Shown: positions 906 through 45,505 of the stretch, in pieces
How positions within the stretch are numbered: the stretch's first letter is position 1
How the letters are laid out: each line of letters opens with the position of its first letter
Source: a virus
Taxonomy: Duplodnaviria > Caudoviricetes
IMG/VR virus record: IMGVR_UViG_3300037808_001257
Span: 1 to 55,669 of that record
Length of the DNA: 55,669 nucleotides
Reading direction: 5' to 3' (one strand)
Program-made: the position numbers and the translations under genes
Notes under the pieces: generated by a model
The model's database searches: none
The model's input: the letters and a program-made list of their open reading frames with translations, nothing else
What the model was told of the DNA's origin: nothing

Positions 906-962
906 GTTTGTTTATAGAGTAGTTTATTTAGCGAATATAGTTTTTTGTTTTGGAGAGAAGCA

Positions 963-3900
963 ATGAAGAGAATAAAACTCAAATCAAATGTGAAACCTTT
1001 TATTGGTCGGCTAAGAAGAACTGTAATGAAAAAAACGGTCAGACCTATTAAACTAGACGAAAAAGAAATAAAAGCATACGTCCAAAAACATGGTACAAAT
1101 CCACCTGTTTCTACTAAACCTTCTTCAGAATGGGCGAATTTATTTGCAGTTTACACTTATTTAATTGAGATAGATCAGTTTTTCATAAAGTTACAAAAAA
1201 GAGTAAATAACAACAAACATGAGGTTAAAGACGTTCTTCTTAGGAGCAAATATCTTAGTGCATACAATTACATTAAGAGGATGTATCGGGAAGACTTAGA
1301 AGAGAACTATATTCAAAACCATAGGATAACAAATCGTCAGCTTGATCTTCTTGAGACGAAGCTTTTAGCACTCGCAATGCAGAACATCCCTATGGAAGAA
1401 AAAATCAAAAAGATCAGATCTCATGTAAGAACAAACGTATTCAAAAATAGGCTTCTCGGTTCATACACTAGATTCATGCTTCAAGCTTTCAGACTATTGA
1501 AATACAGTGTGTCTACAAAAACTAGAAAGAACAGTGCCTTAAGACTTGAATACACACAGTTTAAGTTTGACACTCGAACTGAAGAAATAATAAAGCAGTC
1601 TTCTTTTGATGTAGTCGAAGAGAGAGAAGCTCGTAAGAGACTACTCAAAGTACAAGAAGAGACGTTGAAGAGAGAACTAGAAGAGAGAGAGAGTCCTCTT
1701 GTAGCAGTACAAGAACCTTTATATGTAAAATTAGGGGAAGATGAAAAGGGTAGATCCAAGTCAGAGAAGCAGTTTGTAGTGGTAGGTTACCATCCTTCTG
1801 TCTCTAACTTAAGAGAGAAGCCAAAAAAGAAAGACTTCTCAGTTTCCAAATACCCCACAACAAACATAAAGGATGTTACAGAAGTGACAGTAGGTCGTGG
1901 AGAGGAAAAGAAGAAGGTCTCAGTAAATAAGAAAGCGTTCAACAAAGAGATGGAATCTTGGAGAGAAGAAAAGAAATCCTATGTTGCTGAAATCTACAGT
2001 CCTGTTTTAAGAAATGCTTCTGGAGACGGCTACGAGAAGTTCGAGAAATACGATAAACTTGAAACTGCTCTCGAAGAGAAAAGACAAGAGCAGTTTTTAA
2101 AAGAAAGGCTGACACCAAAGGTTATCCTACCTAAAGATGTCAAACTTAAAGAAGGAGAACGACCAATAGCGAAAGTTGTCTTTGGTCAGGGACAAGCCGA
2201 CCTGGAGTATGAGCTTCCGAACTTTGCTTCAGAATTAGACACAGAATTGGCACAAGAGACAAAACCCTACTTCCGACAAATCACAGACAGAGAAGGGTCT
2301 GAAGTTTCGGATGTTGCCAAGATATACCCTGTAAAGAAGCTTGAAATTGATGGAGATCAAGTAGAAGTCATTTCAGAAGGGCCTTTTGCAGGATTTAAGT
2401 TTGATGAGATGGTTAACGCTATGGGTCGTGTAGTAGATAATGTCTACTATGACTCAGAGGAGAACCCCATAAAACTAATAGATATGGGTCTAGATGCTGA
2501 AAGCTTTGGTTTAGGTCGAGGATTCTTAGAGGTAGAAAAGTCTACAAATACTAAGTCGGGTTACTCTGTAGTCAAAAATAGATTAGTAGAGCCTTATGTC
2601 ACCGTCTCTTCTGACGGAGAACAGTTGATGATTGGACTCCCTAACAAAAAGATGTATAAAAATGATCGTGCTACGATGAAGAAGCTAAAGAAAGCTCAAA
2701 TTGTAACGCAGTACGACTATGCTCTTATTTCTACGAGGCAACAGGGATCAAACCCTTTCTATCTGTTTACTCCTGAGAACTATTCTGTTGTTAAGAATAA
2801 GCTCGGCTCTCTTTCTATTTCTAAACCTGCTCGTGATTTAATTAAGAAATACGAGAGAGAATTAGAAGTTAGAAATAGAGCCTTAGAGCCTGAGAATGTC
2901 TCAAGATTTGACTCTGCTCTTTTGGGAGGGTTTAAAGAAGAAGTGTTTGAAAAACAGTTTGACTTTAATGACAAGCAAAAAGAAGGAATGGCTTGGATTG
3001 AAAGCAATGGTTTCAAAGGTGTGATGTCTCTCGACACAGGTGTTGGTAAAACACTGTTTGGTGGTGGGACAATGCAAAACTTTATGAATTTAGAAAATGA
3101 GAAGATCGCAGATGGGGAGTCCATTTTAAATAAAAATGGAAAAACGAAGAAGTTTTTATTTGTTTCTCCTAAACGACTGGTCGGCAACTTTTCTGCTGAA
3201 ATGTACGATTTTATGAAAGACGAAGGAGTCATTTCAAATCGTATTGTAGAAATGAGCTACTTTGTTTTTGCTCGTACCGTTTCAGCAATGAATGGTATGG
3301 AGGAAGTCTTAAAACCCAACGCCAAAGCTTCTCTAAAGAAATATAGGATGAAGTTCGTGGAAGGTACAGACTTCTTAAACAAAGACAAGACAAAACTCAA
3401 CTATGATGATGCTAATGAGTATTTCTTAGAGAATTACAATATTATTTTCATGGATGAAATCAATGACGCACTTAAGCCTGCGATCAAGAAATCTGTCTCA
3501 GAGTTAGAGCATCCAAGAAAGATTCTTCTCACCGCTTCTCCTATGGAGAAAGACCCTCTCGATCTTTATCGTTTTGTTGCTATTTCTAAGGGGATTAAGC
3601 CAGACAAGAAGAAAGAGCAAGAATTCTTAGACGATTATGCAAATATCATCGGAGGTCGGTTTGTAGGGATAACAGACGACCTCGAAAAGAGAACACAATT
3701 TGAGAAATGGGTTGCAGAGAACGCTTACTTTGCACTTAAAGAAGATGTGGATCTACCTAAGATCAATATGCCAAGACTCCTTAAGCCTACTTACGAGAAT
3801 GTAAGACTAAGAATGGATGATGAAGTTAAGGCTGAGTATAAAAAGAGAGCTAGTAGTCTCAGCAAGAATCTAAAAGGTATGGTGGAGAAATACCGAGACA

Positions 3901-6293
3901 TTATCAAGCTCAAGAAAGCAGATAAGATTTCAGACAAAGAACTTGAGAAGCGTATGAAAGGTCTTGAGGATTATGCAGTTGTTGGCATGGCTGACTCCCT
4001 TAAAGAACTCCAAACACTCGCAACTAACCCTGAAGAAATCCTTCCGGGTGTAAGCAATCCTAAGATCGAAGAAGCTATTTCTATTGCCTCTAAGAGAGAA
4101 GGTAAGAAAATCCTTTATTTCTCTCATCTTGAAAAAATGGTTAAAAAGAACGCTCAGTCTATAAGTAAGCGAGTTTCAGGTCTTCATGTTGCGATGGGAA
4201 ATAATGACATCGTATTTTTTAAAAATGGAGAACCTGTTTCTAAGGTAAACAAGAACACCTCCGTTGGTGATCTTATAAAGATGAACAAAAACTTAAGACT
4301 TGCTTCTTCAAACCCTCCAGTCTTCTTTATGGAAAAGGGTATGGTGAAAGAAGAAGACCTTAACAGAGTTCTTGCTAAAATACTTGGTGGAGATATCTTG
4401 TTGAAAGTCATTGTAGATAAGAAAGGGGGACTCGTTAAGAAATACGATAGCGATCTCCCTCAAAGATACAAGGTGGTCCCTTGGCATGACTCTCCTGAGA
4501 TTATGTTGGAGTACAAAGAAAGAAAAGACCCTAACCAATGGGCGATAGGTGCTTCTAAGTTGATCTTTAAGAAAAACAAAAACATTAGAACGGTTTCCTG
4601 TACTGATGAATATGCTAGAGGCTTCAACTTTCAGTTCACCACAACCGTTGTCCATTTAGATCGTGGAGCAGGCTTTGATTCAGAAATAGTGAAGCAAAGG
4701 ACAGCACGTTCTTATCGCACCAAGCAAGACCAACGTGTAGAGGTTCTGTTCTTAGATGCAACGATTGCAGAGAAGAATGAGAAAGAAATAGAAGTTGAAA
4801 ACGGAGTTAAAGTAAAAGTTAACTGTAACTCTGCTGAAGATCAGACTATTGATGAGATTCAAGATCTTGTTCAAGGTGTGGATCAAGATTTCTTTATGTC
4901 TATCATCAACAAAGCCATGAAGACTAAGCTCAAAGAAGACGGGACTATCTCAGATCTTGGTGAAAGCTATCGTATGAACAGACAAGTGTTGTCTCAAATC
5001 ATAGATCCTACAGGGAAAAACCTCTCAAAGATGAGAGAATCGCTTGCGAAAGAAAGACAAAACCCACTCTTAACTTCTGCTAGAGACCCTAAGCGATTTC
5101 TGTCCTCAGATCTCAAAGCAAGTTTTGAGATCGAGAGTGATATTTCTGAAGATACGGTAGAGTCTAATCTTGATCTTTGTGGTGTCAGTAGCTTTGCAGC
5201 ATTTAACTTTTCCTCTCAAAGTTTCGCTAACTCTGTTTCTGAAAACGAAGTTATTTCTAATGGTCGTCTGCTTAAGCAGTCTACTTCTCTTGAGAAAGAC
5301 GAGGATGGTTTCATCTCAGTTAGAAATAATAAGCTTTCCGTTACAAAATGTGCCCCTAGAGGTACAGGCACTAGAGCTATTGTAGCACAGATAACCGCCT
5401 CTCTTGCGAGGACAGACGTTAAAGAAATAATTGTTATGGGAGAGACTTCAGATAAAACACATTATATCTGGCCAAAACTGGGCTTTAATGCTGAAGTTAG
5501 ACTTCCTTTCTTGGTCGACGAGAAGTTAAACGAAAGAGACAACACAGATGAGGGACGCTCTTTAATAAAAATCAAAGAGTGGCTAGTCTCCAATCGTAGA
5601 CCTATAGGAGAAAATGGTGAGGTCTGCTTACTTAATCTCTATTCTTGTGTAGATTCTTCGGGAGAGTTGATAGGTCAAGAGTGGTGGTTGAAGAACGGCT
5701 TCCCTGTTGAGCTTAAGATTAACTTATCAAACCCCAAGAACAGTTCTCTAAAGTTCTTCAATAGCTATTTCGTTCGGAGATGTGAAGAATTAGAAATTGA
5801 AACGGATGAGTTTCTTTCACTCGAACCTCAACCTTTTGATATAGATCAACCTGCGTGTTGGTTGGATTTCTTAAAGAGATACCGAGAAATAAAAGACTCT
5901 AACGGTAGGGTTTTAAATCCCACAAGAGTGATTAATTCTTACTTCGATGCGTTTATGATAGCTTATGTTTCTCGCAGAGATGTTAGAACGAGAGCAGAAC
6001 CCTTTATTCAGGGTCTACCCACTACAAAACGCAAGAGACTTCAAAGCAATAGTGAAGTTACTGACGAGGCACAAAACGTAGAAACAGGTATTTTTGATGA
6101 CCCAGATACCATTTCAAGATATGCTAACTCTTTGGTTATGAAGTCTGTACATGAGAGAGAAACAAAAACTCTTGATAGTATGTGGAGATCTCGAAGTAAG
6201 AGTATCGAAGCGAATGTAGCCCATGCAGAAATACTTGAAAGTGAAAACTTAGATATAGATGCTCTTGATTTAATTGAAAGTGATGAGGTGTAG
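963..6293 (+). CDS. Giant SNF2-family (SF2) helicase with C-terminal GNAT-like region; DarB-like, possibly virion-packaged
   Basis: Motif I SLDTGVGKT, motif II FMDEIN, motif III LTASP, motif V RGFNFQ..VVHLD, motif VI QRTARSYR. C-terminal RGTGTRAI...YIWPKLGF resembles a GNAT. ATG 963 follows GGAGA. Confidence 0.8.
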   Translation: MKRIKLKSNVKPFIGRLRRTVMKKTVRPIKLDEKEIKAYVQKHGTNPPVSTKPSSEWANLFAVYTYLIEIDQFFIKLQKRVNNNKHEVKDVLLRSKYLSAYNYIKRMYREDLEENYIQNHRITNRQLDLLETKLLALAMQNIPMEEKIKKIRSHVRTNVFKNRLLGSYTRFMLQAFRLLKYSVSTKTRKNSALRLEYTQFKFDTRTEEIIKQSSFDVVEEREARKRLLKVQEETLKRELEERESPLVAVQEPLYVKLGEDEKGRSKSEKQFVVVGYHPSVSNLREKPKKKDFSVSKYPTTNIKDVTEVTVGRGEEKKKVSVNKKAFNKEMESWREEKKSYVAEIYSPVLRNASGDGYEKFEKYDKLETALEEKRQEQFLKERLTPKVILPKDVKLKEGERPIAKVVFGQGQADLEYELPNFASELDTELAQETKPYFRQITDREGSEVSDVAKIYPVKKLEIDGDQVEVISEGPFAGFKFDEMVNAMGRVVDNVYYDSEENPIKLIDMGLDAESFGLGRGFLEVEKSTNTKSGYSVVKNRLVEPYVTVSSDGEQLMIGLPNKKMYKNDRATMKKLKKAQIVTQYDYALISTRQQGSNPFYLFTPENYSVVKNKLGSLSISKPARDLIKKYERELEVRNRALEPENVSRFDSALLGGFKEEVFEKQFDFNDKQKEGMAWIESNGFKGVMSLDTGVGKTLFGGGTMQNFMNLENEKIADGESILNKNGKTKKFLFVSPKRLVGNFSAEMYDFMKDEGVISNRIVEMSYFVFARTVSAMNGMEEVLKPNAKASLKKYRMKFVEGTDFLNKDKTKLNYDDANEYFLENYNIIFMDEINDALKPAIKKSVSELEHPRKILLTASPMEKDPLDLYRFVAISKGIKPDKKKEQEFLDDYANIIGGRFVGITDDLEKRTQFEKWVAENAYFALKEDVDLPKINMPRLLKPTYENVRLRMDDEVKAEYKKRASSLSKNLKGMVEKYRDIIKLKKADKISDKELEKRMKGLEDYAVVGMADSLKELQTLATNPEEILPGVSNPKIEEAISIASKREGKKILYFSHLEKMVKKNAQSISKRVSGLHVAMGNNDIVFFKNGEPVSKVNKNTSVGDLIKMNKNLRLASSNPPVFFMEKGMVKEEDLNRVLAKILGGDILLKVIVDKKGGLVKKYDSDLPQRYKVVPWHDSPEIMLEYKERKDPNQWAIGASKLIFKKNKNIRTVSCTDEYARGFNFQFTTTVVHLDRGAGFDSEIVKQRTARSYRTKQDQRVEVLFLDATIAEKNEKEIEVENGVKVKVNCNSAEDQTIDEIQDLVQGVDQDFFMSIINKAMKTKLKEDGTISDLGESYRMNRQVLSQIIDPTGKNLSKMRESLAKERQNPLLTSARDPKRFLSSDLKASFEIESDISEDTVESNLDLCGVSSFAAFNFSSQSFANSVSENEVISNGRLLKQSTSLEKDEDGFISVRNNKLSVTKCAPRGTGTRAIVAQITASLARTDVKEIIVMGETSDKTHYIWPKLGFNAEVRLPFLVDEKLNERDNTDEGRSLIKIKEWLVSNRRPIGENGEVCLLNLYSCVDSSGELIGQEWWLKNGFPVELKINLSNPKNSSLKFFNSYFVRRCEELEIETDEFLSLEPQPFDIDQPACWLDFLKRYREIKDSNGRVLNPTRVINSYFDAFMIAYVSRRDVRTRAEPFIQGLPTTKRKRLQSNSEVTDEAQNVETGIFDDPDTISRYANSLVMKSVHERETKTLDSMWRSRSKSIEANVAHAEILESENLDIDALDLIESDEV

Positions 6294-17976: not shown

Positions 17977-18165
17977 ATGTCAAAAAAACTAAGAGATTTC
18001 ACAAAACCGATACCCTCGGAAGAATTTTGTGCTTTGTGTGGTGAGAAGAGAGTCGAGTGTGAATCTTGTTTCCGTCCTGTACATGAGTGTTCAGACTGTG
18101 ATTGCAATAATAAAGATTGCCCCTGCTGTTTAACAGGAGTTTGTACTTGTGACACTCAAAGTTGA
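17977..18165 (+). CDS. Cys-rich metallothionein-like / zinc-binding small protein
   Basis: 12 Cys in about 41 residues (CxxC, CxC, CC); fills the gap between coupled neighbours. Confidence 0.65.
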   Translation: MSKKLRDFTKPIPSEEFCALCGEKRVECESCFRPVHECSDCDCNNKDCPCCLTGVCTCDTQS

Positions 18166-19013
18166 GTAGAAATATGCCTGACCATGAAATTGCAATGAGA
18201 GAAAGATACTTAGCGATAGTACTCCTAGATTTGATAGGGTCTACTGCTTTTGTCCAAAAGGTAGGTGCGAAAGTCGCCGCTCAGTGGTTTCAAATCCATG
18301 ATCGTATGGCAAGAAATCTTGTTTATAGGCATGAAGGTCGGGAAATAGATCGTTCAGATGGATTTCTTTTATCTTTTGAGAGACCTATAGATGCTATTAA
18401 CTTTGCTCTCGCTTATCAAAAAAAAATCCCTCCTAAGATTAAGATAAACACACGCATAGGTATTCATTGGGGTAAGATCATTGAGGTAGAACAAAAAGAA
18501 GTTTATGTGGGAGCGGGTGCAAAGAGAGTCGAACTAGAAGGGATCTCAAAAAACATTGCTGCTAGAACAATGTCTTTATGTCAAAAAGGTCAAGTTCTAA
18601 TGACTAAGGAAGCAATGTTAGCCGTTAGAAATAGAACGAATATGCACACACCAAAAAGCACCCGATTTGCTTGTGTCGGCCTGTATAAATTTAAAGGTGT
18701 GAAAGAACCACAAGAAATATATGCGGTTGGTGAAACCATTGAATCGCTACAGCCTCCTCCAAGTTCAGAGAAAGTAAAGAGACTAGGAGGCCCTAAATAC
18801 ATTGGAAAAAGAGCTAGAGATCGCAAGTTCCTAGATTGGGCTAGTTATTTCTTTTGGAGGGCTGGGGTTATAGCGTGTTTGTTCTGGCTTTATATTATTT
18901 TTCAAATGTCTACAAAGTCCGTTGCAAGATCTCTTATCGGACTTCCTTACCAAATGCCTAAGTATGACGCTTTTATTAAATGGGCTAAAGAGATTCTTGA
19001 AAGGGCTTGGTGA
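18162..19013 (+). CDS. Class III nucleotidyl (adenylate/guanylate-type) cyclase with C-terminal transmembrane helix
   Basis: IVLLDLIGST, RSDGFLLSF, RIGIHWG, NIAAR, GQVL, YKFKGV; hydrophobic segment FFWRAGVIACLFWLYIIF. Start may be ATG 18174. Confidence 0.88.
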   Translation: MSRNMPDHEIAMRERYLAIVLLDLIGSTAFVQKVGAKVAAQWFQIHDRMARNLVYRHEGREIDRSDGFLLSFERPIDAINFALAYQKKIPPKIKINTRIGIHWGKIIEVEQKEVYVGAGAKRVELEGISKNIAARTMSLCQKGQVLMTKEAMLAVRNRTNMHTPKSTRFACVGLYKFKGVKEPQEIYAVGETIESLQPPPSSEKVKRLGGPKYIGKRARDRKFLDWASYFFWRAGVIACLFWLYIIFQMSTKSVARSLIGLPYQMPKYDAFIKWAKEILERAW

Positions 19014-19510
19014 TGTCCGAGACAAAAACAAACAGGCACTTCACACAAACCGAGAAAGCTAAAAGAGGGTGGTGGGCTAGTGTAGTCTTTATGCTTTTAA
19101 TAATTGGTCTGATCTGGTTCTTGGCTAAACATGAAATTGTAGAAAAAAACCGAGACATACTAATCGGCATTATAGGAATGCTAACGGGTTCGATTTCTTC
19201 AATGTTAGCAATAGCTAGTGGTCGAGATCCTTCCGAAGTAGAAGAACTCAAAGATAAGCTAGCCTCGGCTAATGGTGACCGAGAAGCTCTTATTGCTCGG
19301 TTGAGAGATTGTCAAATCCAACTACAGTTATGTAGAGATCAGATTTTTGAACTTCAATCCGCAGTCATTAATAAGCTGTCATTGTTTGCAGGTGAAGCAC
19401 CAATAAAGTCAATGACAGAAAAAGATGTGGAGTTAAAAGGTGTTGTTAGTGAATGGAGTGTGCCTAATAACTCTGAGGGTAATCCTATTTCTGACGGGGA
19501 GTCTGATTGA
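19007..19510 (+). CDS. Two-TM membrane protein with C-terminal coiled coil
   Basis: WWASVVFMLLIIGLIWFLA and ILIGIIGMLTGSISSMLAIA, then heptad repeats; overlaps the cyclase stop. Confidence 0.75.
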   Translation: MVMSETKTNRHFTQTEKAKRGWWASVVFMLLIIGLIWFLAKHEIVEKNRDILIGIIGMLTGSISSMLAIASGRDPSEVEELKDKLASANGDREALIARLRDCQIQLQLCRDQIFELQSAVINKLSLFAGEAPIKSMTEKDVELKGVVSEWSVPNNSEGNPISDGESD

Positions 19511-19859
19511 GATTCTCCCATCTTTTATGAAATGCCCCATCTTCAAAGTTTGTGAGATACTCATACGCTGAATCTGTGTTGCTCAAACCTTGGTCTCCAC
19601 TAAGATTTGAAAAGAAGAATTGCAACTCTCCTTTTGATTGCTCAGAAAAGCGAGAGAAATCCAGATCCGCCATTTCATTTTCAGACATATTAGAAATAAT
19701 GTTGGAGAGAGTTTCTTTCTCTTCTTTGCTTAGATTGAAGTTGACGGTTTGAGGGTTGAAGATATAATCAAGAATCTCTTCTCTTCTTTGCACAGGCATG
19801 GTGTGGCAGACATATCTAAATTTTAATCCCTGTAGTTTGCGTTTGATTGTCTTAAACAT
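19485..19859 (-). CDS. Hypothetical protein
   Basis: Only substantial ORF in the gap; ATG 19859 with AAGGA upstream. Confidence 0.6.
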   Translation of the reverse strand: MFKTIKRKLQGLKFRYVCHTMPVQRREEILDYIFNPQTVNFNLSKEEKETLSNIISNMSENEMADLDFSRFSEQSKGELQFFFSNLSGDQGLSNTDSAYEYLTNFEDGAFHKRWENLNQTPRQK

Positions 19860-28769: not shown

Positions 28770-29450
28770 ATGAGTATGAAACCCGAAGATTTTAATCTGA
28801 TTCCAGATGGAGTTACTCGTGTTCAAGTTAAAGATGAGATTGGAAAAACTGTTTGGAGAAAACCGACAGACTTAAAAAATTCAGACACTCTACAATTTAA
28901 TCCCTCCACAGGAGATTTATTTGTTATGTTTGGCTCTCCGGGGAAGCCAACGGTGAGCAACCCCAATAACCTGCCGGTTGTTTCAACCCCCCAAGCTACT
29001 ATCCAAAGAATACAAAATAAAAAGCAAGATTCTTTGAGTCGTGATCCTGTCTTAAGTACTACGACTTTGGACCCTGAGTCTTCTGATGTACTGACTTCAG
29101 TTCTTGTGGGTTTAGCAGAAGAATCTGCTTCCTTAGCTTTTGAGCGTCAAGAAGCAGAGAGAAGAGGAGACTCCACTTCTCAGATTTCTTTAAGGCGTGT
29201 AAATGCTTTAAAAGCAGTGGGCGACACTTGGTTAAAAAAGAAAGAACTGATCTCAAGTTCTTCTATTGATTTAGAGTCCACAGCTTTCAAGATTATTTTT
29301 ATACATATAGCTGAAACTTTCAGAAAAGCTTGTGACGAAGCAGGGGTACGGCCTGAGATGAGCGAGAGTGTGTTCGCAGTTTTTGGGACACTTGTGGATG
29401 ACATTGATTGGATGAGAGAAGCTAGGGCGAAATTAGAAAAAGGTAAATAA
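28770..29450 (+). CDS. Putative terminase small subunit
   Basis: Helical 226-aa protein immediately upstream of, and overlapping, TerL. Positional inference only. Confidence 0.45.
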   Translation: MSMKPEDFNLIPDGVTRVQVKDEIGKTVWRKPTDLKNSDTLQFNPSTGDLFVMFGSPGKPTVSNPNNLPVVSTPQATIQRIQNKKQDSLSRDPVLSTTTLDPESSDVLTSVLVGLAEESASLAFERQEAERRGDSTSQISLRRVNALKAVGDTWLKKKELISSSSIDLESTAFKIIFIHIAETFRKACDEAGVRPEMSESVFAVFGTLVDDIDWMREARAKLEKGK

Positions 29451-32400
29451 TGAGTCTTTCATCTTTGGCGATAGGTGCTTCAGCGACTGTGGGAAAAAAC
29501 TCTGAAGAAGATGCTAATATTATAGATTTTGTCGAAGCTTCTTGGGGCTTAAAGATGACTTTGTTTCCCATACAGAAAATCATTCTTAAAGCACACTATG
29601 GTCTAGAGCTTGACGGTGTGGAGACTTTTAAGATCAGCGATTGGAGAAGACAAGATTGGGAAGAACATACCGAGAAATCTTACCTCAAGAAGCTATATGA
29701 CGAGGGGAGATGTAATATCGGTGAGGTGATTCCTGGGAAGCAACGCAGGGAAATGATCCTTTCTATTGGTAGGCGTTCTGGGAAATGTGTAACAGGAGAC
29801 ACTCTCATACCGACCTCAAGAGGTTTAGTTAGATTAGATTCTCTTGGCGATTCCTCTTTAGGGGGGCTTGAATACCAACCTCTTTCAGAGTTGATCCTTC
29901 AAGAAGGGGGTAATACTGCTCGGACTGCTTTCTTTTATAATGGGGGCATAAAGAAAACGAAAAAAATGCGAACAAGTTCAGGGTTTGAACTAGAGGGGAC
30001 TCCAAATCATAGGATTAAAGTACTTGATTCAGACTTTAATATTTCTTGGAAATATCTGGCAGATATAAAAGAAGAAGATCTTGCTTGCTTAAATCGAAAG
30101 CGAGGGTTGTTCCCGGATTCTTGTGTTTCTTTAGTTGAATATAAAAGTGATTTGAGTATGAAGGATAAACTTCCTGATATTCTCAATGAAGATTTAGCAG
30201 AGTTTTTAGGAGTACTTGTAGGAGATGGTACTTGGTCTTCCTCCTCCAGGGTTGAAGTCACAGTAGCGGAAGAAGGTTTTAAAAGCGATGTCTGTAAGAA
30301 GATGGTTTCTCTCTTTGGCAAAGTCTCTATATCCTCTTTTTCAAGTGGCTGTTATAGGGTTTCTTGCTATAGCAAAGAGCTGAGACTATTTTTACATCGT
30401 CTTGGGTGGGGCATACAAACACCTCTGTTAGATAAGTCTATCCCCCACGTTATATTAAAAAGTCCTCGTTCTGTGGTGTGTGCTTTCTTTAGGGGTCTTT
30501 TTGAGACTGATGGGTATATTCGTGGCTTTAACTCAGTTACGAAGAAGCACAAGAGGGAGGTCGTTTACTATTCTTCTTCTCCTCTTTTGCTCAAAGAGTC
30601 TCAAATACTCTTAATGAATTTGGGGGTTTTGACTACAAGGAGATGGAAAGAGAGAAAAGGCAAAAAGAACCGAGAGGGGTTCATAAGCTTGAAGGGGTCA
30701 GATTCGTATCTTGTGTTTTTACGAGACATCGGCTTTATTTCTCAGAAAAAGAGAGACATTGCAAAAGCTCTTTTTGATCGTTTGAAGGTGAGGGTGGATC
30801 ATAGTGATTCCTCTTCTCCTAAAGGCTTTGGTTCTTTCTTGAAAAGTAGAGGGGTTTCCATAAGGAGTCACAGCCCAAGTTTTGCTAAGTTGGGTCAAAT
30901 ATTAAAAGGAGACCTCTCAGATGATTTGAGAGAGAAGATCTTAAAGATACTTGATCTAAGTTATTTCTTTGACAAGGTTATTTCTGTAGAGGATTCAGAA
31001 AACCATGTCTATGATTTGAATGTACCCGAAGGATCAATGTTTGTAGGGAACTGCTTTACGAATCACAACACCACTATTTCTGCCTGTATCGCAGCTTATG
31101 AAACGTATAAACTTATAAAGAAAGATGACCCTCAGAAATACTACGGACTGCCTTCCTCGAACAATATTCAGATTATTTCTGTAGCGACAGACAAAGATCA
31201 AGCAGGGTTGCTTTACCAAGAAGTGTCAGGGCATTATCGAAACTGTGCTTTCTTTGGTCCTTATACTGCAAATAACACTCTCTCCTATGCTCGCTTTCAA
31301 ACCCCTAGTGACGTGACAAAATATGGGAGATACATTGAAAACGCAGACGCAAAAGCGACTCTTAAAGTTACTTTTAGGTCTTGTGTGGCTAAAGGTCTTC
31401 GTGGTGCAGGTAACATATGCGTAATACTTGATGAGGTTGCTCACTTTACTGAAACGGGTCAGTCGGGGGCAGAAGAAGTCTATAATGCGGTTGTTCCTTC
31501 GACTTCAGCGTACTCACCTAAAGACCCCATAAATCCAACTAAGCCTGTGGGTGAAGTGGAGGGTCGCATTATTCTTATTTCTTCACCTTTGGGCAAACAA
31601 GGGTTGTTCTATAAGCTCTTCAATATTGGTATGCAAGGAGGGGGTGCTTCTTCTAATATGCTTTGTGTTCAAGCTCCTACATGGGAAGTAAACCCTACTG
31701 TACCTGCGGAAGAGTTTGAAAAGCACTACTTGAAGAATGCAGCGGTGTTCTTCACCGAGTATGGAGGGAAGTTTACAGATAGAACTAGAGGCTGGATAGA
31801 GAAAGAAGAAGACCTTTTAGCTTGTGTAGATCCTAATCTCAAAGAAAGAAAAAGAGCACCTGCAAGAAAACCACATTTCATAGGGATTGACTTGGGTCTT
31901 GTAGGCGATGGTACTGCAATAGCAATAGGACATCTCGAAGAAGATAAAATAGTATTGGATCTTGTTACTCAGATTAAAGCTGGGGAAGGGGATTTCGCAG
32001 ACAGAGACAGACTCGATTTTGATGATGTTGCAGATTGGATTTTCGGCTACACTAGGAAATTTTATGTGTCGGAGGGCTTATTTGATCAGTGGGCGGGTAT
32101 TCCTTTAGAGCAAGCTCTTTCTAAAAGGGGCTTAGGTCAAATGAGATCGGAACACATGACTAAGAATAAGACATCGGATATGTATCAGAACTTTAAGTCT
32201 TTGATGTGGGATAAAAAGATTTCTTTGTATGATAATCAAAACGTAGAAGAAAAGGGTCACGCTCCATATATCTTGGAGTTGTTTGAGTTACAAGCTCATG
32301 TACATAGTAAACATGTGGTCACTGTGGAAGCTCCACAAGTACAAGGGAAGCATGACGACATGGCAGATGCTTTGATAAGAATGGTGTGGGTCGCTTCTAG

Positions 32401-32581
32401 GAATTTCGGTAAGCAGAAATACTTCGCTAATGGTAGTGGTGGTAATACTCTTTCTATATCTGGCAAAGGTTTTGCTACTTCACCAAAGCTGAGAGGGAGA
32501 GCAAACTCTTCTCCTCAGAGATCCTCGCCTAGAAATAACAAGCATTCTTTAAGAAATAGAATACTTGGGAAGAGAAAATAG
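29450..32581 (+). CDS. terL: Terminase large subunit, intein-containing
   Basis: FPIQKIIL, Walker A GRRSGK|TT, Walker B VILDEVAHF, ISSPLG, nuclease motifs IGIDLG and HDDMADA. Confidence 0.93.
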   Translation: MSLSSLAIGASATVGKNSEEDANIIDFVEASWGLKMTLFPIQKIILKAHYGLELDGVETFKISDWRRQDWEEHTEKSYLKKLYDEGRCNIGEVIPGKQRREMILSIGRRSGKCVTGDTLIPTSRGLVRLDSLGDSSLGGLEYQPLSELILQEGGNTARTAFFYNGGIKKTKKMRTSSGFELEGTPNHRIKVLDSDFNISWKYLADIKEEDLACLNRKRGLFPDSCVSLVEYKSDLSMKDKLPDILNEDLAEFLGVLVGDGTWSSSSRVEVTVAEEGFKSDVCKKMVSLFGKVSISSFSSGCYRVSCYSKELRLFLHRLGWGIQTPLLDKSIPHVILKSPRSVVCAFFRGLFETDGYIRGFNSVTKKHKREVVYYSSSPLLLKESQILLMNLGVLTTRRWKERKGKKNREGFISLKGSDSYLVFLRDIGFISQKKRDIAKALFDRLKVRVDHSDSSSPKGFGSFLKSRGVSIRSHSPSFAKLGQILKGDLSDDLREKILKILDLSYFFDKVISVEDSENHVYDLNVPEGSMFVGNCFTNHNTTISACIAAYETYKLIKKDDPQKYYGLPSSNNIQIISVATDKDQAGLLYQEVSGHYRNCAFFGPYTANNTLSYARFQTPSDVTKYGRYIENADAKATLKVTFRSCVAKGLRGAGNICVILDEVAHFTETGQSGAEEVYNAVVPSTSAYSPKDPINPTKPVGEVEGRIILISSPLGKQGLFYKLFNIGMQGGGASSNMLCVQAPTWEVNPTVPAEEFEKHYLKNAAVFFTEYGGKFTDRTRGWIEKEEDLLACVDPNLKERKRAPARKPHFIGIDLGLVGDGTAIAIGHLEEDKIVLDLVTQIKAGEGDFADRDRLDFDDVADWIFGYTRKFYVSEGLFDQWAGIPLEQALSKRGLGQMRSEHMTKNKTSDMYQNFKSLMWDKKISLYDNQNVEEKGHAPYILELFELQAHVHSKHVVTVEAPQVQGKHDDMADALIRMVWVASRNFGKQKYFANGSGGNTLSISGKGFATSPKLRGRANSSPQRSSPRNNKHSLRNRILGKRK
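29786..31069 (+). mobile_element. 428-aa intein with LAGLIDADG homing endonuclease inside the TerL Walker A motif
   Basis: Starts CVTGDT; block B GTPNHRI; FLGVLVGDG and FFRGLFETDG; VYDLNV; ends HN followed by Thr(+1). Confidence 0.95.
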
Positions 32582-43061: not shown

Positions 43062-43937
43062 ATGAGTACCGTAGATAATGCAGTAAAACAGAAGATTATT
43101 TCTGACTATATTAAGACTCCACAGGGTCGTAGCAAACTCGCAGCCAGCATGACTCAGCCTTTGCGTCTTCGCAGAGACTATACGAGCGTTGGTCGTAAGA
43201 CTTTCCTCGTTGAGCAACTTCCTGATGGTGCGTTGCCGATTTATGACAAAGATCCAGACGTGACTGCGTTTGTGGTTGGTGAAGAGGGTGAGAACATTCT
43301 CGCTATCACCAAGCCTAGACGTGTGATTTTCCCTCTTTTTGAGATTGCGTCTAACCCTGAGATCCCATTGACTCAAATCAAAGAGAGACGCTTCGATCTG
43401 ATCGAGCGTGCTCAAGATTTGGCTCGTGCTCAGATCCAAGCGGCGGAAGACGAGCGTGTATTCGCTATTCTTGACGCAGTTGCTACTTCAGGCTTTGATA
43501 GCGTTCCTGGTCAAACTAACGCTGACATTCCTGTTATCGCTCCTCTCAATGGTGCTGTTCTTGCTGATGCTTTTGCTCTCATCGAGAGACATGACCTTCG
43601 TGTTGCTCGTATCTTCATGAACGCTCGTGATTATGCTGACATCCGTAAGTTCGGTAGAGACATTCTTGACATTGAGAGCCAAGCGGCTCTCCTCAAGACA
43701 GGTCTTCAAGCGACTCTTTGGGGTGCTCAGATTATCACTAGTCGTCTTGTTCCTGTTGGAACTGTGTACGCCACTTGTGAGCCTGAAATGTTCGGACGTA
43801 TCCCTGTTCGTACTGAGCTTACCGTTCTTTCTGCTGATGATCCAAAGGCTCGTACCATTGGTTTCAGCGTTTTTGAGAACTTGGGTATAGGTGCATATAA
43901 CCCTAAGGGCCTTGCACGACTCACCGTTACTCGCTAA
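43062..43937 (+). CDS. Major capsid protein (HK97 fold)
   Basis: LRLRRDY..VGRK.FLVEQLP.GA.P.YD, FEIASNP, IQAAED, LWGAQI..S..VP.G.VY, IGFSVFE.LG; strongly biased codon usage; followed by a terminator. Confidence 0.88.
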   Translation: MSTVDNAVKQKIISDYIKTPQGRSKLAASMTQPLRLRRDYTSVGRKTFLVEQLPDGALPIYDKDPDVTAFVVGEEGENILAITKPRRVIFPLFEIASNPEIPLTQIKERRFDLIERAQDLARAQIQAAEDERVFAILDAVATSGFDSVPGQTNADIPVIAPLNGAVLADAFALIERHDLRVARIFMNARDYADIRKFGRDILDIESQAALLKTGLQATLWGAQIITSRLVPVGTVYATCEPEMFGRIPVRTELTVLSADDPKARTIGFSVFENLGIGAYNPKGLARLTVTR

Positions 43938-44120: not shown

Positions 44121-44597
44121 ATGAACAACAATTTTGTTCCAGTTCCCACAGTAATGGAAGCCATGACAGGTTTCCTCTGTAGTAAGGCTTTTCTTATCTA
44201 TCTAATTATATTTGGTGTTCCATTTTTTATATGGCTTTTTAGCAAAAAAAAGAGGAGAGAAGAAACTGATCTCTTTCGAGCACTAATGCTCGAAAACCAA
44301 AATCTTAGGCGAAGACTAGGACAGACACCAAATGAAGAGCAAGATGATATGTTCTCCAACAACGTACTCACCTCGTCAGATGACAATAAAAAACGACAGT
44401 TTAAAGATATCAAATGGATAAACGCAGGACTCAGACATGATATAAAAATACTAAACATCGAGGATAAAGAGACACTATTGAAAGCGAAGGCTCTACTTTT
44501 GTACTTAACTACCTCGGAGAAACAAACCCCACAATTTATTGAGGGTGTTCAGAAAACGCTCAAGGTTATTACGATCCTAGAAAAGAGTGTAAGATGA
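44121..44597 (+). CDS. Single-TM membrane protein
   Basis: AFLIYLIIFGVPFFIWLF followed by KKKRR; AAGGAG RBS. Confidence 0.75.
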   Translation: MNNNFVPVPTVMEAMTGFLCSKAFLIYLIIFGVPFFIWLFSKKKRREETDLFRALMLENQNLRRRLGQTPNEEQDDMFSNNVLTSSDDNKKRQFKDIKWINAGLRHDIKILNIEDKETLLKAKALLLYLTTSEKQTPQFIEGVQKTLKVITILEKSVR

Positions 44598-45505
44598 GAG
44601 CGATACCATGCCCTATATCTAAAGAGCGTTTTGAAGACCTCTATACTAAGCAATACTTAACACAGGAGCAGATTAACGAGTTGTTGATCTCTGAGGGTAT
44701 TGACTCAAGCATAAAGCGTATTGGTAGTTGGAGACTACGCTATGGGATTGAAACGGTATCTAAGTTTGATCGTCTTGAGTTACCAAAGATTGAGGGGGAG
44801 TTAAGATCAATCCTTATTGGTTCTATGCTAGGTGACGGTCGTATTGCTTTTCGTACTAACGCTTCACACTATGAGGAACGACACGCACCCAATCAGAAAG
44901 AGTATCTTGAGTGGAAGCAAGAGAAGTGGGGCGTGTGGTCATCTGGGGGTTTAGCTGTAGCGATGAGTAGGGAGTTCCCTAGTTATATCTTTCGCACCCA
45001 CGCTCACCCTATGCTGAATGAGTATCGAGACTTGTTCTATGAGGAGAGGGGTAAGGGGTGGAAAGTTGTTAAGTCTGATGTTATAGACCAAGTAGATGAG
45101 TTAGCTTTGGCTATGTGGTATCTCGATGATGGTCATGCAGGACATTGGCCTATTATTTGTTTTGGTGCAAAACAGGGGAGTCGAGCTAACGCTTACTTAA
45201 TCTTTGAGAAGTTTGGATTGCACCCAAGATGGAAAGTGGTAAAAGACACGAATGGTCAGTTCCATTTTCGAGAGGAAGATGCGGAGCGATTTATTGAGAT
45301 CATTAAGCCTCATGTACCCGATTGTATGTCTTACAAGTTGGACTTTGGTTTTCAAGGTCGTAACAATGCTATTAAGAAAAAGATGAACAAAGGTATCTTA
45401 GAGGAGTTGAGGGGTAAGGGTTGGAGTAAGCGTAGGATAGCTAAGTATCTTGATGTGGGATATAATACAGCAGATCGTTGGATGCGTAAGTTTGGGGTTG
45501 AGTAA
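44594..45505 (+). CDS. Free-standing LAGLIDADG homing endonuclease with flanking HTH-like regions
   Basis: ILIGSMLGDG, QKEYLEWK, LAMWYLDDG, IKPHV...MSYK; C-terminal GWSKRRIAKYLDV HTH. Confidence 0.9.
   Translation: MRAIPCPISKERFEDLYTKQYLTQEQINELLISEGIDSSIKRIGSWRLRYGIETVSKFDRLELPKIEGELRSILIGSMLGDGRIAFRTNASHYEERHAPNQKEYLEWKQEKWGVWSSGGLAVAMSREFPSYIFRTHAHPMLNEYRDLFYEERGKGWKVVKSDVIDQVDELALAMWYLDDGHAGHWPIICFGAKQGSRANAYLIFEKFGLHPRWKVVKDTNGQFHFREEDAERFIEIIKPHVPDCMSYKLDFGFQGRNNAIKKKMNKGILEELRGKGWSKRRIAKYLDVGYNTADRWMRKFGVE

Follow-up and report, generated by a model that had tools for sequence, protein, structure and literature searches.

In phage biology, cyclic nucleotides are best known as bacterial alarms, raised by systems such as CBASS and Pycsar and destroyed or sequestered by phages. 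Pycsar and Pucsar combine a class III-type cyclase with an effector. According to the accessible part of one report, the transmembrane (TM) effectors of both consist of a cNMP-binding domain and a 3TM module of the pJV1-spdB3 family (10.64898/2026.08.12.744502). Solved class III cyclases include the cyclase-homology domain (CHD) of Rv1900c/LipJ (1YBT/1YBU) and Ma1120 (4WP8 and others), which are soluble or fused domains with neither a C-terminal TM helix nor a 2TM partner. Furthermore, Lysobacterales, Burkholderiales, Acidobacteriota and Myxococcota encode TIGR04510-type proteins, in which a CHD and a TM helix are followed by a periplasmic sensor. These proteins are uncharacterised, and our literature search found no work on TIGR04510 or on a "peptide modification system cyclase".

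Here, we analyzed a phage locus in which a membrane-anchored cyclase is encoded beside a 2TM coiled-coil protein. The literature search, which had the supplementary gene tables of huge-phage surveys outside its scope, found no description of such a pair, and the accessible part of a jumbo-phage survey names no comparable nucleotide cyclase (PMC7824862).

Results

A three-gene locus in a huge marine phage

The window, that is, the whole stretch of 55,669 nucleotides that was analyzed, is a piece of a huge marine phage genome with a completeness of about 18%. The original prediction described three overlapping genes, encoding a Cys-rich peptide, a membrane-anchored class III cyclase and a 2TM coiled-coil protein. 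All three are present on the same strand (Table 1). However, the likely starts read from the DNA limit strict overlap to the cyclase and 2TM genes, whose stop codon and start ATG have one base in common (TGATG); the peptide and cyclase genes overlap only if the latter opens at TTG 18162. The likely start of the peptide gene lies 3 bases past the stop of the preceding gene, and the length of the cyclase from its likely start equals that of the database protein P0001. A terminator-like hairpin sits at the stop of the partner gene, and the operon probably ends there.

Table 1. Features of the cyclase locus in the window. Cyclase residue numbers follow the 283-aa frame.
Feature	Position	Strand	Basis
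Cys-rich peptide, 62 aa, 12 Cys (likely start ATG 17977)	17977-18165	+	ORF list
Cyclase ORF, 283 aa	18162-19013	+	open from TTG 18162
Cyclase from likely start ATG 18174, 279 aa	18174-19013	+	DNA reading
2TM partner ORF, 167 aa	19007-19510	+	open from TTG 19007
2TM partner from likely start ATG 19013, 165 aa	19013-19510	+	DNA reading
Cyclase-homology domain (CHD), residues ~10-205	18189-18776	+	profile alignments to 1ybt, 4wp8
Cyclase single TM helix, residues 229-247	18846-18902	+	hydropathy scan; AF2 helix 223-251
Partner TM hairpin	19070-19213	+	hydropathy scan; AF2 helices; invariant columns
Partner long coiled-coil helix, residues 75-127	19229-19387	+	AF2 model
Terminator-like hairpin + T run	19496-19518	+	consensus scan only

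Database searches returned 816 clusters related to the cyclase (E ≤ 0.001, among 1731 candidates) and 1468 related to the partner (among 1726 candidates); thus, neither gene is a chance ORF. A tblastn search of GenBank phages with the cyclase or with the partner gave no match, and sampled words were next to absent from three metatranscriptome runs.

The cyclase retains a class III active site and carries one TM helix

The cyclase matched PF00211 with 26 bits, above the Pfam cut-off of 21.9, and with 25 bits in a six-frame search of the record. Its best solved profile matches were the CHDs of Rv1900c and Ma1120 (E = 2.9e-11 and 4.7e-09). The AF2 model (pLDDT 87.4) superposed on solved class III cyclases, and Foldseek returned 188 PDB matches at E ≤ 0.001, of which all those listed were cyclases. 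Rv1900c and Ma1120 were among the best fold matches (TM by target 0.86–0.90, rmsd 1.7–2.6; for Rv1900c, 1ybu_A, TM 0.90 and rmsd 1.7), and their metal-binding Asp pair and Arg align with those of the phage protein at an overall identity of 22–24%. The gene had been taken for a real class III cyclase, which the PF00211 score and the fold both bear out. Judged from its sequence, the protein of 279 or 283 aa consists of a class III CHD with one TM helix on its C-terminal side.

Catalytic positions were assigned from profile alignments to Ma1120 and Rv1900c. The CHD holds D23, D63, D66, R98, E124, N131, R135 and K178, together with an LQPPP linker motif. D23 and D66 occupy the metal-binding positions, and the motifs N131-x-A-x-R135 and EIDRSDG are present; the first metal-site motif reads DLIGST, compared with the usual D-I-x-G-F-T. 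D23, D63, D66, R98, K121, E126, K130, R135 and K178 were the same in all 57 distinct phage cyclases, a set that takes in sequences at only 38–45% identity, and the transition-state residue N131 was kept in 53 of the 57. Retention of both metal-binding Asp residues and of the N-x-A-x-R motif, first noticed in the window, is therefore a feature of the phage cyclases as a group, and these residues suggest that the enzyme would be catalytically competent.

The base-selecting pair is Lys/Asp in adenylyl cyclases and Glu/Cys-Ser-Gly in guanylyl cyclases. In the profile alignments to Rv1900c and Ma1120, the phage cyclase has D63 at the Lys position, followed by a one-residue deletion, so that the base-selecting Lys is missing from EIDRSDG as had been read from the sequence. 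E124 stands at the position of the base-selecting Asp and is replaced by Asn in 10 of the 57 distinct phage cyclases. The D63/E124 pair fits neither the adenylyl nor the guanylyl type and matched no characterised specificity; hence, the substrate base is not readable from the sequence.

The hydropathy scan agreed with the predicted membrane anchoring of the cyclase (Table 1). Past the TM helix, a conserved tail of 36 residues is probably periplasmic. The helix itself is poorly conserved, and thus a specific TM–TM contact with the partner is not favored. A complex prediction of the cyclase with partner residues 1–135, run without controls, gave a score of 0.00 and a mark of 0.32 and is neutral either way.

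TIGR04510-type proteins are the nearest cellular relatives

The nearest cellular relatives of the cyclase were the bacterial TIGR04510-type proteins, at 37–45% identity. The phage cyclase matched the TIGR04510 model (mod_pep_cyc) at positions 7–204 of 814 with 158.5 bits (E = 2.6e-46), below the family cut-off of 400 bits; a true member (L166) scored 881.6 bits. The comparison with TIGR04510 made in the original prediction was therefore apt for the N-terminal domain. Both groups contain EID[KR][ST]DGFLL, GAK..E.EG, Y.FKG and a PL.PP linker, Asp and Glu at the base-selecting positions, and a TM helix near residue 230. Phage and bacterial TIGR04510-type CHDs grouped together in the tree against ordinary PF00211-TPR cyclases (support 0.96). 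The bacterial proteins continue with a periplasmic TolB-like/TPR part of about 600 residues, whereas the phage cyclase lacks it and ends 36 residues past the TM helix. Moreover, the phage motif KNIAAR has the canonical Asn, in contrast to the Pro of KP.AAR in 21 listed bacterial sequences.

The neighboring gene also differs: phages have the 2TM partner, whereas a gene with PF00027 and PF00990 lies immediately upstream of the bacterial cyclase in 31 of 79 loci, in Lysobacterales and Acidobacteriota. Pfam confirmed both domains in three of three neighbor proteins tested. Because the bacterial sister cyclases share the motifs and adjoin genes for cNMP-binding GGDEF proteins, the sequences suggest that the phage/TIGR04510-type clade probably makes a cNMP. 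No gene of the Cys-rich peptide family was found near the 79 bacterial loci.

The partner belongs to a virus-only 2TM coiled-coil family

The predicted 2TM coiled-coil architecture was recovered by two methods: the hydropathy scan placed TM1 at residues 22–40 and TM2 at residues 51–69, and AF2 modeled helices at 14–41, 49–70 and 75–127, the last being the long coiled-coil helix. The short inter-TM loop contains an invariant N48-R49-D50, TM2 is rich in Gly, Ser and Thr, and an invariant juxtamembrane motif, ASGRDPSE, precedes the coiled-coil helix. From the two TM segments and the charge distribution, we infer that the coiled coil is cytoplasmic.

No family was found for the partner in Pfam, PHROGs, NCBIfam or PADLOC. 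The Atlas clusters of its relatives are 100% viral, and the partner is thus a member of a virus-only family without a name, present on at least 294 viral contig stretches. A PDB fold search with the partner model returned nothing at E ≤ 0.001, and its profile matched only generic coiled coils among PDB sequences. The partner contains no cNMP-binding domain by PF00027 or PADLOC effector searches. Searching its profile against 1.84 billion representatives gave 102 matches, all but one of at most 256 aa, with no form fused to a cNMP-binding domain. A relationship to SLATT proteins was considered and not borne out, the best model (NF033635) reaching 12.9 bits (E = 0.077), below its cut-off of 35; Pfam SLATT models matched neither the partner nor 26 distant relatives.

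Cyclase and partner are tightly linked in phages

The cyclase and the partner occurred together in 80 of 81 viral loci, and the remaining locus has just 213 nt of upstream DNA. In every paired locus, the two genes lie on the same strand; they overlap or are separated by at most 59 nt in 77 of 80, and their stop and start codons usually overlap. Gene order was reversed in one locus of this set and in a further locus, L013. The refuting outcome that the original prediction had named, genes unlinked in relatives, was therefore not observed. The partner remains 65–83% identical while cyclase identity drops to 38%. Five huge-phage records each contain exactly one gene of the partner family, and it lies beside the cyclase. 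In bacterial genomes, the phage-type pair was absent among 185,579 species, and none of 62 matches to a partner pattern was confirmed.

In the window and four related huge-phage records (G001–G004), the module lies among genes for RNR, a helicase, ThyX, PhoH and dCMP deaminase, a nucleotide-metabolism setting more in keeping with early or middle genes than with late genes for lysis. It is outside any lysis cassette in these sequences; the only candidate endolysin (Amidase_2) in the huge-phage records lies 23–61 kb away, and five huge-phage records contained neither the phrog_894 endolysin nor the phrog_3427 holin. PF00027 was absent from all four related phage records (227–376 kb).

The upstream slot is variable

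The Cys-rich peptide has the N-terminal motif RDFTKPxP..FCxLC and neither a signal peptide nor a TM segment, and searches of Pfam, PHROGs, NCBIfam and PADLOC gave no match for it. With an HMM made from ten of these peptides, a copy was found in 20 of the 81 viral loci, which come from at least three distinct branches in the tree of cyclases; 18 of the 20 genes overlap the cyclase start or lie within 6 nt of it. The peptide is thus a facultative third gene of the module, and its predicted membership stands only in that sense, as it is not fixed. Weak Atlas leads suggest a likeness to zinc ribbons, and the product is probably a small, cytoplasmic, zinc-ribbon-like protein. A pairing of the peptide with an upstream 194-aa gene instead of the cyclase was dropped on the larger locus set.

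In 23 of the 81 loci, a small lipoprotein fills the same slot, and the content of the slot (peptide, lipoprotein or neither) differs between close relatives. In E. coli, Asp or Glu at position +2 retains a lipoprotein in the inner membrane. The upstream lipoprotein of huge phages carries one of these two residues at +2 past the lipobox Cys; by this rule, it would be kept in the inner membrane.

Short relatives of the partner occur in lysis cassettes

Short relatives of the partner were confirmed on 264 viral stretches, and none of the 80 loci kept had a cyclase. Ten loci were annotated with PHROGs: in four, the short relative directly adjoins an endolysin or amidase gene, and a separate holin (phrog_3427) is present in three. 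By tblastn, 27 of the 80 loci contain an endolysin or amidase, which is adjacent in 18, and 16 contain a holin. Taken together, at least 32 of 80 loci have a lysis context, a lower bound obtained with three lysis query types, by which the other 48 contained no lysis gene. On this sequence evidence, the 2TM coiled-coil family appears to be a lysis-cassette component. Given that shorter, cyclase-less members sit in lysis cassettes, the partner looks of holin or antiholin type; because some of these cassettes have a separate holin, the role of the family may be holin, antiholin or other.

The original prediction allowed that the 2TM protein could simply be a holin. The contexts of the short relatives speak for this, and the distance of the huge-phage gene from its candidate endolysin speaks against it. 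Like class II holins, the partner is small, with two TM segments, a putative N-in/C-in topology and a charged C-terminus that would be cytoplasmic; the composition of TM2 and the endolysin genes adjoining the short relatives add to the resemblance. However, its long coiled coil is unusual for holins, its gene is not close to the candidate endolysin in the huge phages, and it had no sequence match to annotated holin families. Two-component spanins pair a protein that has one N-terminal TM helix and a periplasmic coiled coil with a lipoprotein of the outer membrane. Such a spanin, with the partner as i-spanin and the lipoprotein as o-spanin, was rejected: the partner has two TM segments, the short relatives have no real lipoprotein gene next to them and no spanin-like genes in their cassettes, and the upstream lipoprotein carries Asp or Glu at +2. 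Rz-like matches of the partner were weak (E = 0.0075 and 0.013).

No support for a place in the Pycsar family

The juxtaposition of a class III-type cyclase and a small membrane protein resembles Pycsar and Pucsar, and the logic of generator and effector may be the same. However, the PADLOC PycC match to the phage cyclase was weak (14.2 bits at E = 0.005, and no single stretch passed), and PADLOC found no PycTM or effector match in the module, in agreement with the earlier remark that no PycTM signature was visible. No Pycsar cyclase was among the PDB matches listed for the cyclase model. Pycsar effectors join a cNMP-binding domain to a 3TM or TIR part, whereas the partner has two TM segments, a coiled coil and no such domain. 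Moreover, the phage cyclase is itself membrane-anchored, unlike Pycsar and Pucsar cyclases, and the pair is carried by phages and was not found in bacterial genomes. Our comparison thus does not support membership in the Pycsar family, although the logic of cyclase plus membrane effector is similar.

Discussion

We propose, with a probability of roughly 0.4, that the phage cyclase is coupled to a holin-type membrane protein controlling membrane or lysis events. The core would be a two-gene phage membrane module. In the cyclase encoded by its first gene, a basic juxtamembrane linker would join the cytoplasmic CHD to a single TM helix with a short tail on the outside, the equivalent of a TIGR04510-type receptor cyclase without the large periplasmic sensor; the second gene would encode an obligate partner that combines a TM hairpin with a coiled coil in the cytoplasm. 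Cyclase and partner would act jointly at the inner membrane and may be in physical contact there. The cyclase would make a 3',5'-cNMP. Either this cNMP or contact of the two juxtamembrane segments would time the membrane perturbation by the partner, leading to lysis timing, lysis inhibition or exclusion of later phages. The Cys-rich peptide in the window, or the lipoprotein in other lineages, would serve as a swappable input or regulator. Against this proposal stand the nucleotide-metabolism setting of the module in huge phages, the lack of a recognisable nucleotide-binding domain in the partner, the poor conservation of the cyclase TM helix, the DLIGST form of the first metal-site motif and the D63/E124 pair. 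It seems quite unlikely that the partner reads the cNMP, possibly a non-canonical one given the Asp/Glu pair, directly through its invariant juxtamembrane motif; this would make it a new, CNB-less kind of receptor and the module a phage-owned, nucleotide-gated clock for lysis or exclusion, tuned by the swappable peptide or lipoprotein.

The main rival, possible but doubtful, is that the phage hijacks host signaling. The sensor-free cyclase would flood the cell with the TIGR04510-type cNMP, the 2TM protein would be a scaffold that dimerises the CHD, and host CRP-like regulators and cNMP-binding GGDEF proteins would reprogramme metabolism, motility or surface structures. Class III cyclases are active only as dimers, and the canonical coiled coil of the partner suits such a scaffold. 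The cNMP-binding GGDEF genes beside the bacterial sister cyclases and the position of the module among early-type nucleotide-metabolism genes also argue for hijacking. With no cNMP-binding domain encoded in the four related phage records, a host reader would be needed if a canonical domain reads the signal. In addition, the accessible part of a study of marine phage gene clusters reports adenylate cyclases as putative host-manipulating genes (PMC9599517). However, hijacking leaves unexplained why the partner family works without a cyclase in lysis cassettes and why conservation is higher in the partner than in the enzyme, and the absence of the phage-type pair from bacterial genomes also counts against it.

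It is unlikely that the module serves inter-phage conflict, in which a second phage would fire the cyclase and the 2TM protein would depolarise the membrane or block DNA entry in the manner of Pycsar. The shared logic described in the accessible part of the Pycsar/Pucsar report is consistent with such superinfection exclusion, as are the variable upstream slot, which is typical of conflict loci, and the early-type genomic position. The weak PycC match and the partner itself, which is not of the 3TM type, argue against it. Moreover, nearly all of the phage clade carries the pair, in a highly conserved form, whereas a patchy distribution is usual for defence islands, and no partner pattern match was confirmed in bacteria. 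A RiPP-like system, in which a peptide would be the target of the CHD, with the 62-aa Cys-rich product as substrate or precursor, we regard as very unlikely. The cyclase strongly matches an NCBIfam model named "putative peptide modification system cyclase", and 18 of 81 loci, from three parts of the cyclase tree, have a Cys-rich gene directly upstream; nevertheless, the cyclase scores below the family cut-off, and of the 77 loci with both a cyclase and upstream DNA, 57 lack the peptide. No linked maturase, protease or exporter was found in the phage, the catalytic residues of a nucleotide cyclase are strictly conserved, and among the bacterial relatives the pairing is with a cNMP receptor, with no peptide-family gene nearby.

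A large clade of huge phages owns a cyclase with an intact predicted active site, tied to an unnamed membrane protein, and this pairing suggests that a second messenger is produced at the membrane by the phages themselves. With an active enzyme, phages would be makers of second messengers as well as erasers of them, and cNMP signaling would be linked to membrane or lysis control. Two unnamed families also gain context, the 2TM coiled-coil family and the TIGR04510-type cyclases; for the latter, the position next to cNMP-binding diguanylate cyclases points to a bacterial relay from cNMP to c-di-GMP rather than to peptide modification.

Conserved linkage of the cyclase and partner genes

The three ORFs of the original prediction were recovered in an ORF listing of the window and form a single, tightly packed same-strand unit, encoding a Cys-rich peptide, a class III cyclase and a two-transmembrane (2TM) coiled-coil protein, hereafter the partner. 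Positions are collected in the table.

Coordinates of the module and of other features in the window and in database loci (L numbers)
Feature	Position	Remark
Cys-rich peptide, ATG	window 17977	three bases past the stop of the upstream 194-aa gene
Cys-rich peptide, TGA	window 18163-18165
Cyclase, likely ATG	window 18174	279 aa, equal in length to the identical database protein P0001
Cyclase stop/partner ATG	window 19011-19015	overlapping, TGATG
Terminator-like hairpin and T run	window 19496-19518
ORF of 1782 aa	window 945-6293	no PHROG match at E≤1e-5
Terminase large subunit ORF	window 29450-32581	1043 aa
Major head protein gene	window 43062-43937
LAGLIDADG homing-endonuclease gene	window 44594-45505	near the major head protein gene
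Slot lipoproteins	L018:800-1006, L026:2877-3092, L039:2847-3101	Asp or Glu at +2 after the lipid-modified Cys; 20 more loci
Asn-bearing cyclases	L047:1617-2492, L054:1578-2471	and relatives
Three paralogous ORFs of 150-170 aa	L047:2523-3979	between cyclase and partner, L047/L050 lineage
Lysis cassettes of smaller phages	L216:3983-5308, L234:3480-4753, L245:4001-5539	amidase or M15-like endolysin with phrog_3427 holin
cNMP-binding GGDEF neighbour	L166:4411-5721	upstream of cyclase L166:5932-8613
Cyclase gene running off both contig ends	L009:2-784, L017:6001-6426	375,691-bp viral contig G001

Using the partner alignment as a query, we found 294 viral stretches encoding a partner relative; linkage was counted over 80 kept loci plus the window. 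Cyclase and partner occurred together in 80 of these 81 loci; in the exception, the upstream DNA is limited to 213 nt. The two genes share a strand in every pair, the cyclase preceding the partner in 79 and following it in one, with a gap of at most 59 nt or an overlap in 77/80. An earlier locus set contained the pair in 14/14 loci with enough flank, once order-swapped, and the other neighbours differed. The original prediction had named unlinked genes in relatives as evidence against a module; the cyclase and partner genes proved to be linked. Partner identity was 65–83% where cyclase identity falls to 38%. Exactly one partner-family gene was present in each of five huge-phage records, and none of 62 pattern matches in bacterial genomes was confirmed as a partner relative. 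Three loci carry an insert of ~1.5 kb between the genes; that of L054 differs from the paralogous ORFs of the L047/L050 lineage and lies on the opposite strand.

The slot upstream of the cyclase is variable. An HMM built from ten Cys-rich peptides (12 Cys, N-terminal RDFTKPxP..FCxLC) detected the peptide in 20/81 loci. That it travels with the upstream gene was rejected: in 18 of the 20 positive loci it overlaps the cyclase start or is separated from it by no more than 6 nt, and the positive loci are spread over three or more distinct regions of the cyclase tree. In 23/81 loci the same slot is filled by a lipobox lipoprotein of 68–101 aa with four further Cys; neither was detected in 33, and four more lack upstream DNA. 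One lineage carries a different 52-aa Cys-rich ORF together with the lipoprotein. The window's closest relatives (86% identity) have the lipoprotein, so the content of the slot changes quickly. No family could be assigned to the Cys-rich peptide, for which Atlas gave weak leads to zinc ribbons.

Catalytic residues of the cyclase

The cyclase scored 26 bits against Pfam PF00211 (cut-off 21.9). Its AlphaFold model, built with 76 relatives as input, was confident (pLDDT 87.4), and Foldseek returned 188 PDB matches at E≤0.001; among the matches listed, all were class III cyclases, including Rv1900c (TM score 0.90 by target, rmsd 1.7). Catalytic positions were assigned from profile alignments to Rv1900c and Ma1120. 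These alignments bore out the intact metal-binding Asp pair (D23, D66) and N-x-A-x-R motif (transition-state pair N131, R135) of the original prediction, as well as its missing base-selecting Lys: D63 stands at that position, followed by a one-residue deletion, and E124 stands at the base-selecting Asp position. Among 57 distinct phage cyclases drawn from the 81 loci, some only 38–45% identical to that of the window, D23, D63, D66, R98, K121, E126, K130, R135 and K178 did not vary; N131 was kept in 53/57, and E124 in 47/57. Judged from sequence, such conservation is as expected for a functional enzyme, one whose substrate is not readable from established rules. The remaining ten, a divergent subclade, carry Asn for E124 and are also altered at residues 61 and 64; this subclade may mark a second substrate specificity. 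The cyclase-homology domain (CHD) is followed by a conserved basic linker (LQPPP...KVKRLGGPKY), one hydrophobic segment (229–247) and a conserved 36-residue tail. A few uncharacterised viral proteins carry CHD folds.

Relationship to bacterial TIGR04510-type cyclases

NCBIfam TIGR04510 matched strongly over its N-terminal 200 model positions (E=2.6e-46, 158.5 bits), but the phage cyclase falls outside this family by score (against 400) and by architecture, the sensor region being a feature of the bacterial proteins. A search among longer proteins gave 59 matches, 46 of them strong, with 34–45% CHD identity; several bear the source name 'putative peptide modification system cyclase'. Phage and longer bacterial cyclases have a common signature (EID[KR][ST]DGFLL, GAK..E.EG, Y.FKG, PL.PP linker), and most of the latter have one TM helix at ~residue 230, then a ~600-residue region with TPR repeats. 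In a FastTree analysis of 57 phage, 46 bacterial and 13 ordinary PF00211-TPR CHDs, all rows retained, phage and TIGR04510-type CHDs grouped together (support 0.96); the bacterial ones formed a clade (0.93), 56/57 phage CHDs formed a clade with weak support (0.22), and the remaining phage CHD, on a long branch, was placed beside the bacterial CHDs. Given the signature, TM position and tree grouping, the phage cyclase looks like a TIGR04510-type receptor cyclase minus its sensor.

One genome per species was scanned, which confirmed at least 518 bacterial TIGR04510-type loci; 79 of them were kept. All of these cyclases were 37–45% identical to the phage cyclase, and none was of the phage type. 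No partner-like, peptide-like or lipoprotein-like gene was found at the 79 loci, the sole match being marginal (E=0.003). In 31 of them, plus one truncated case, the gene directly upstream on the same strand aligned over a cNMP-binding region and GGDEF; such neighbours occur in Lysobacterales and Acidobacteriota/Thermoanaerobaculia, and Pfam confirmed PF00027 and PF00990 in 3/3 proteins tested. These neighbours suggest a cNMP-to-c-di-GMP relay instead of peptide modification at the bacterial loci, weaken the 'peptide modification' label, and by association support a cyclic mononucleotide as the product of the joint clade.

The partner and its short relatives in lysis cassettes

Hydropathy and a structure model of moderate confidence (pLDDT 66) concur on a TM hairpin (22–40 and 51–69) and a long helix (75–127) in the partner. 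No family matched in Pfam, PHROGs, NCBIfam or PADLOC; the PDB gave generic coiled coils only, and Atlas clusters were entirely viral. Invariant positions fall in TM1 (G21, W22, A24, S25), the loop (N48, R49, D50), a small-residue ladder in TM2 (G54, G57, T60, G61, S64) and a juxtamembrane motif, ASGRDPSE. Charge distribution predicts an N-in/C-in topology, by which this acidic motif and the coiled coil would be cytoplasmic and lie beside the cyclase's basic linker.

When 1.84 billion representatives were searched with a profile, 102 proteins matched at E≤0.001, with no fusion to a known domain seen. Many are 109–145 aa long and follow a common plan: TM hairpin, G[RK][DN]P.E motif, coiled coil and LQ..VI.KLS. 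This short family matches phrog_9990 (unknown function) weakly. A search with short members as the query gave 264 confirmed viral stretches; 80 loci were kept, and in none of them was a cyclase found within 4 kb. When 71 ORFs from ten such loci were annotated with PHROGs, an endolysin or amidase stood directly beside the short gene in four loci, and an endolysin stood 1.9 kb away in a fifth; a separate phrog_3427 holin adjoined the gene in three. Those endolysin, amidase and holin sequences then served as tblastn queries against the full set of 80 loci: endolysin/amidase was present in 27 (adjacent in 18), holin in 16 and any of them in 32, a lower bound from only three query types; the other 48 had no match to these types. 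No spanin-like genes were found in the cassettes. From these neighbours, the family is a putative lysis-cassette membrane component. The original caveat that the 2TM protein may be a holin gains from this context, but the huge-phage pair lies away from the amidase: a candidate Amidase_2 endolysin is 23–61 kb distant, and neither phrog_894 nor phrog_3427 was found in the huge-phage records.

Possible functions of the pair

A relationship to Pycsar was not supported. As described in 10.64898/2026.08.12.744502, the cyclase of Pycsar and Pucsar is soluble and is paired with an effector whose cNMP-binding domain is joined to a TIR or 3TM module; the partner lacks such a domain. The cyclase reached E=0.005 against PADLOC PycC with no stretch passing, PADLOC effector models did not match the module, and PF00027 was absent from four related phage records (227–376 kb, 73–100% complete). 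Membership in Pycsar is not supported, but by analogy the module may work like a generator–effector pair.

We favor, at a probability of about 0.4, a reading in which the cyclase would control a holin-type partner at the membrane, in lysis timing, lysis inhibition or exclusion, because this explains the near-absolute linkage and the partner's family context; activity, topology, contact and timing are what we infer. The alternative that the phage hijacks host cNMP signalling and uses the partner as a dimerising scaffold accords better than membrane control with the early-gene setting and with the bacterial receptor link; we consider it possible yet rather unlikely. Inter-phage defence appears improbable, and peptide modification, the role in the weakened bacterial label, highly improbable; the rest of the probability is given to no particular reading.

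Source annotation of cyclase relatives already reads 'class 3 adenylate cyclase', and PMC9599517 notes adenylate cyclases in pelagiphage curli clusters. In the literature searched we found no description of the conserved pair, the partner family or TIGR04510 biology, although supplementary gene tables may list the genes.

The window and its phage

The 55.7-kb record has an estimated completeness of 18%; it is therefore only part of a huge-phage genome of some 300 kb. PHROGs annotation placed ribonucleotide reductase, a Dda/RecD-like helicase, ThyX, PhoH and dCMP deaminase around the module, and terminase, portal, protease and major head protein genes further along. For the major head protein, identity was 89% with the counterpart in LR745208.1, a 485-kb record of an uncultured phage, 49% with that of Tunturiibacter phage Tunturi_5 and 39% with that of Bacillus phage G. 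Terminase matches in the large subunit ORF are confined to residues 507–929, and residues 110–438 are covered by phrog_9666, of unknown function; the ORF may be a fusion or carry an insertion. The contig G001 is probably a complete genome, circularly permuted or terminally redundant, although classed as linear.
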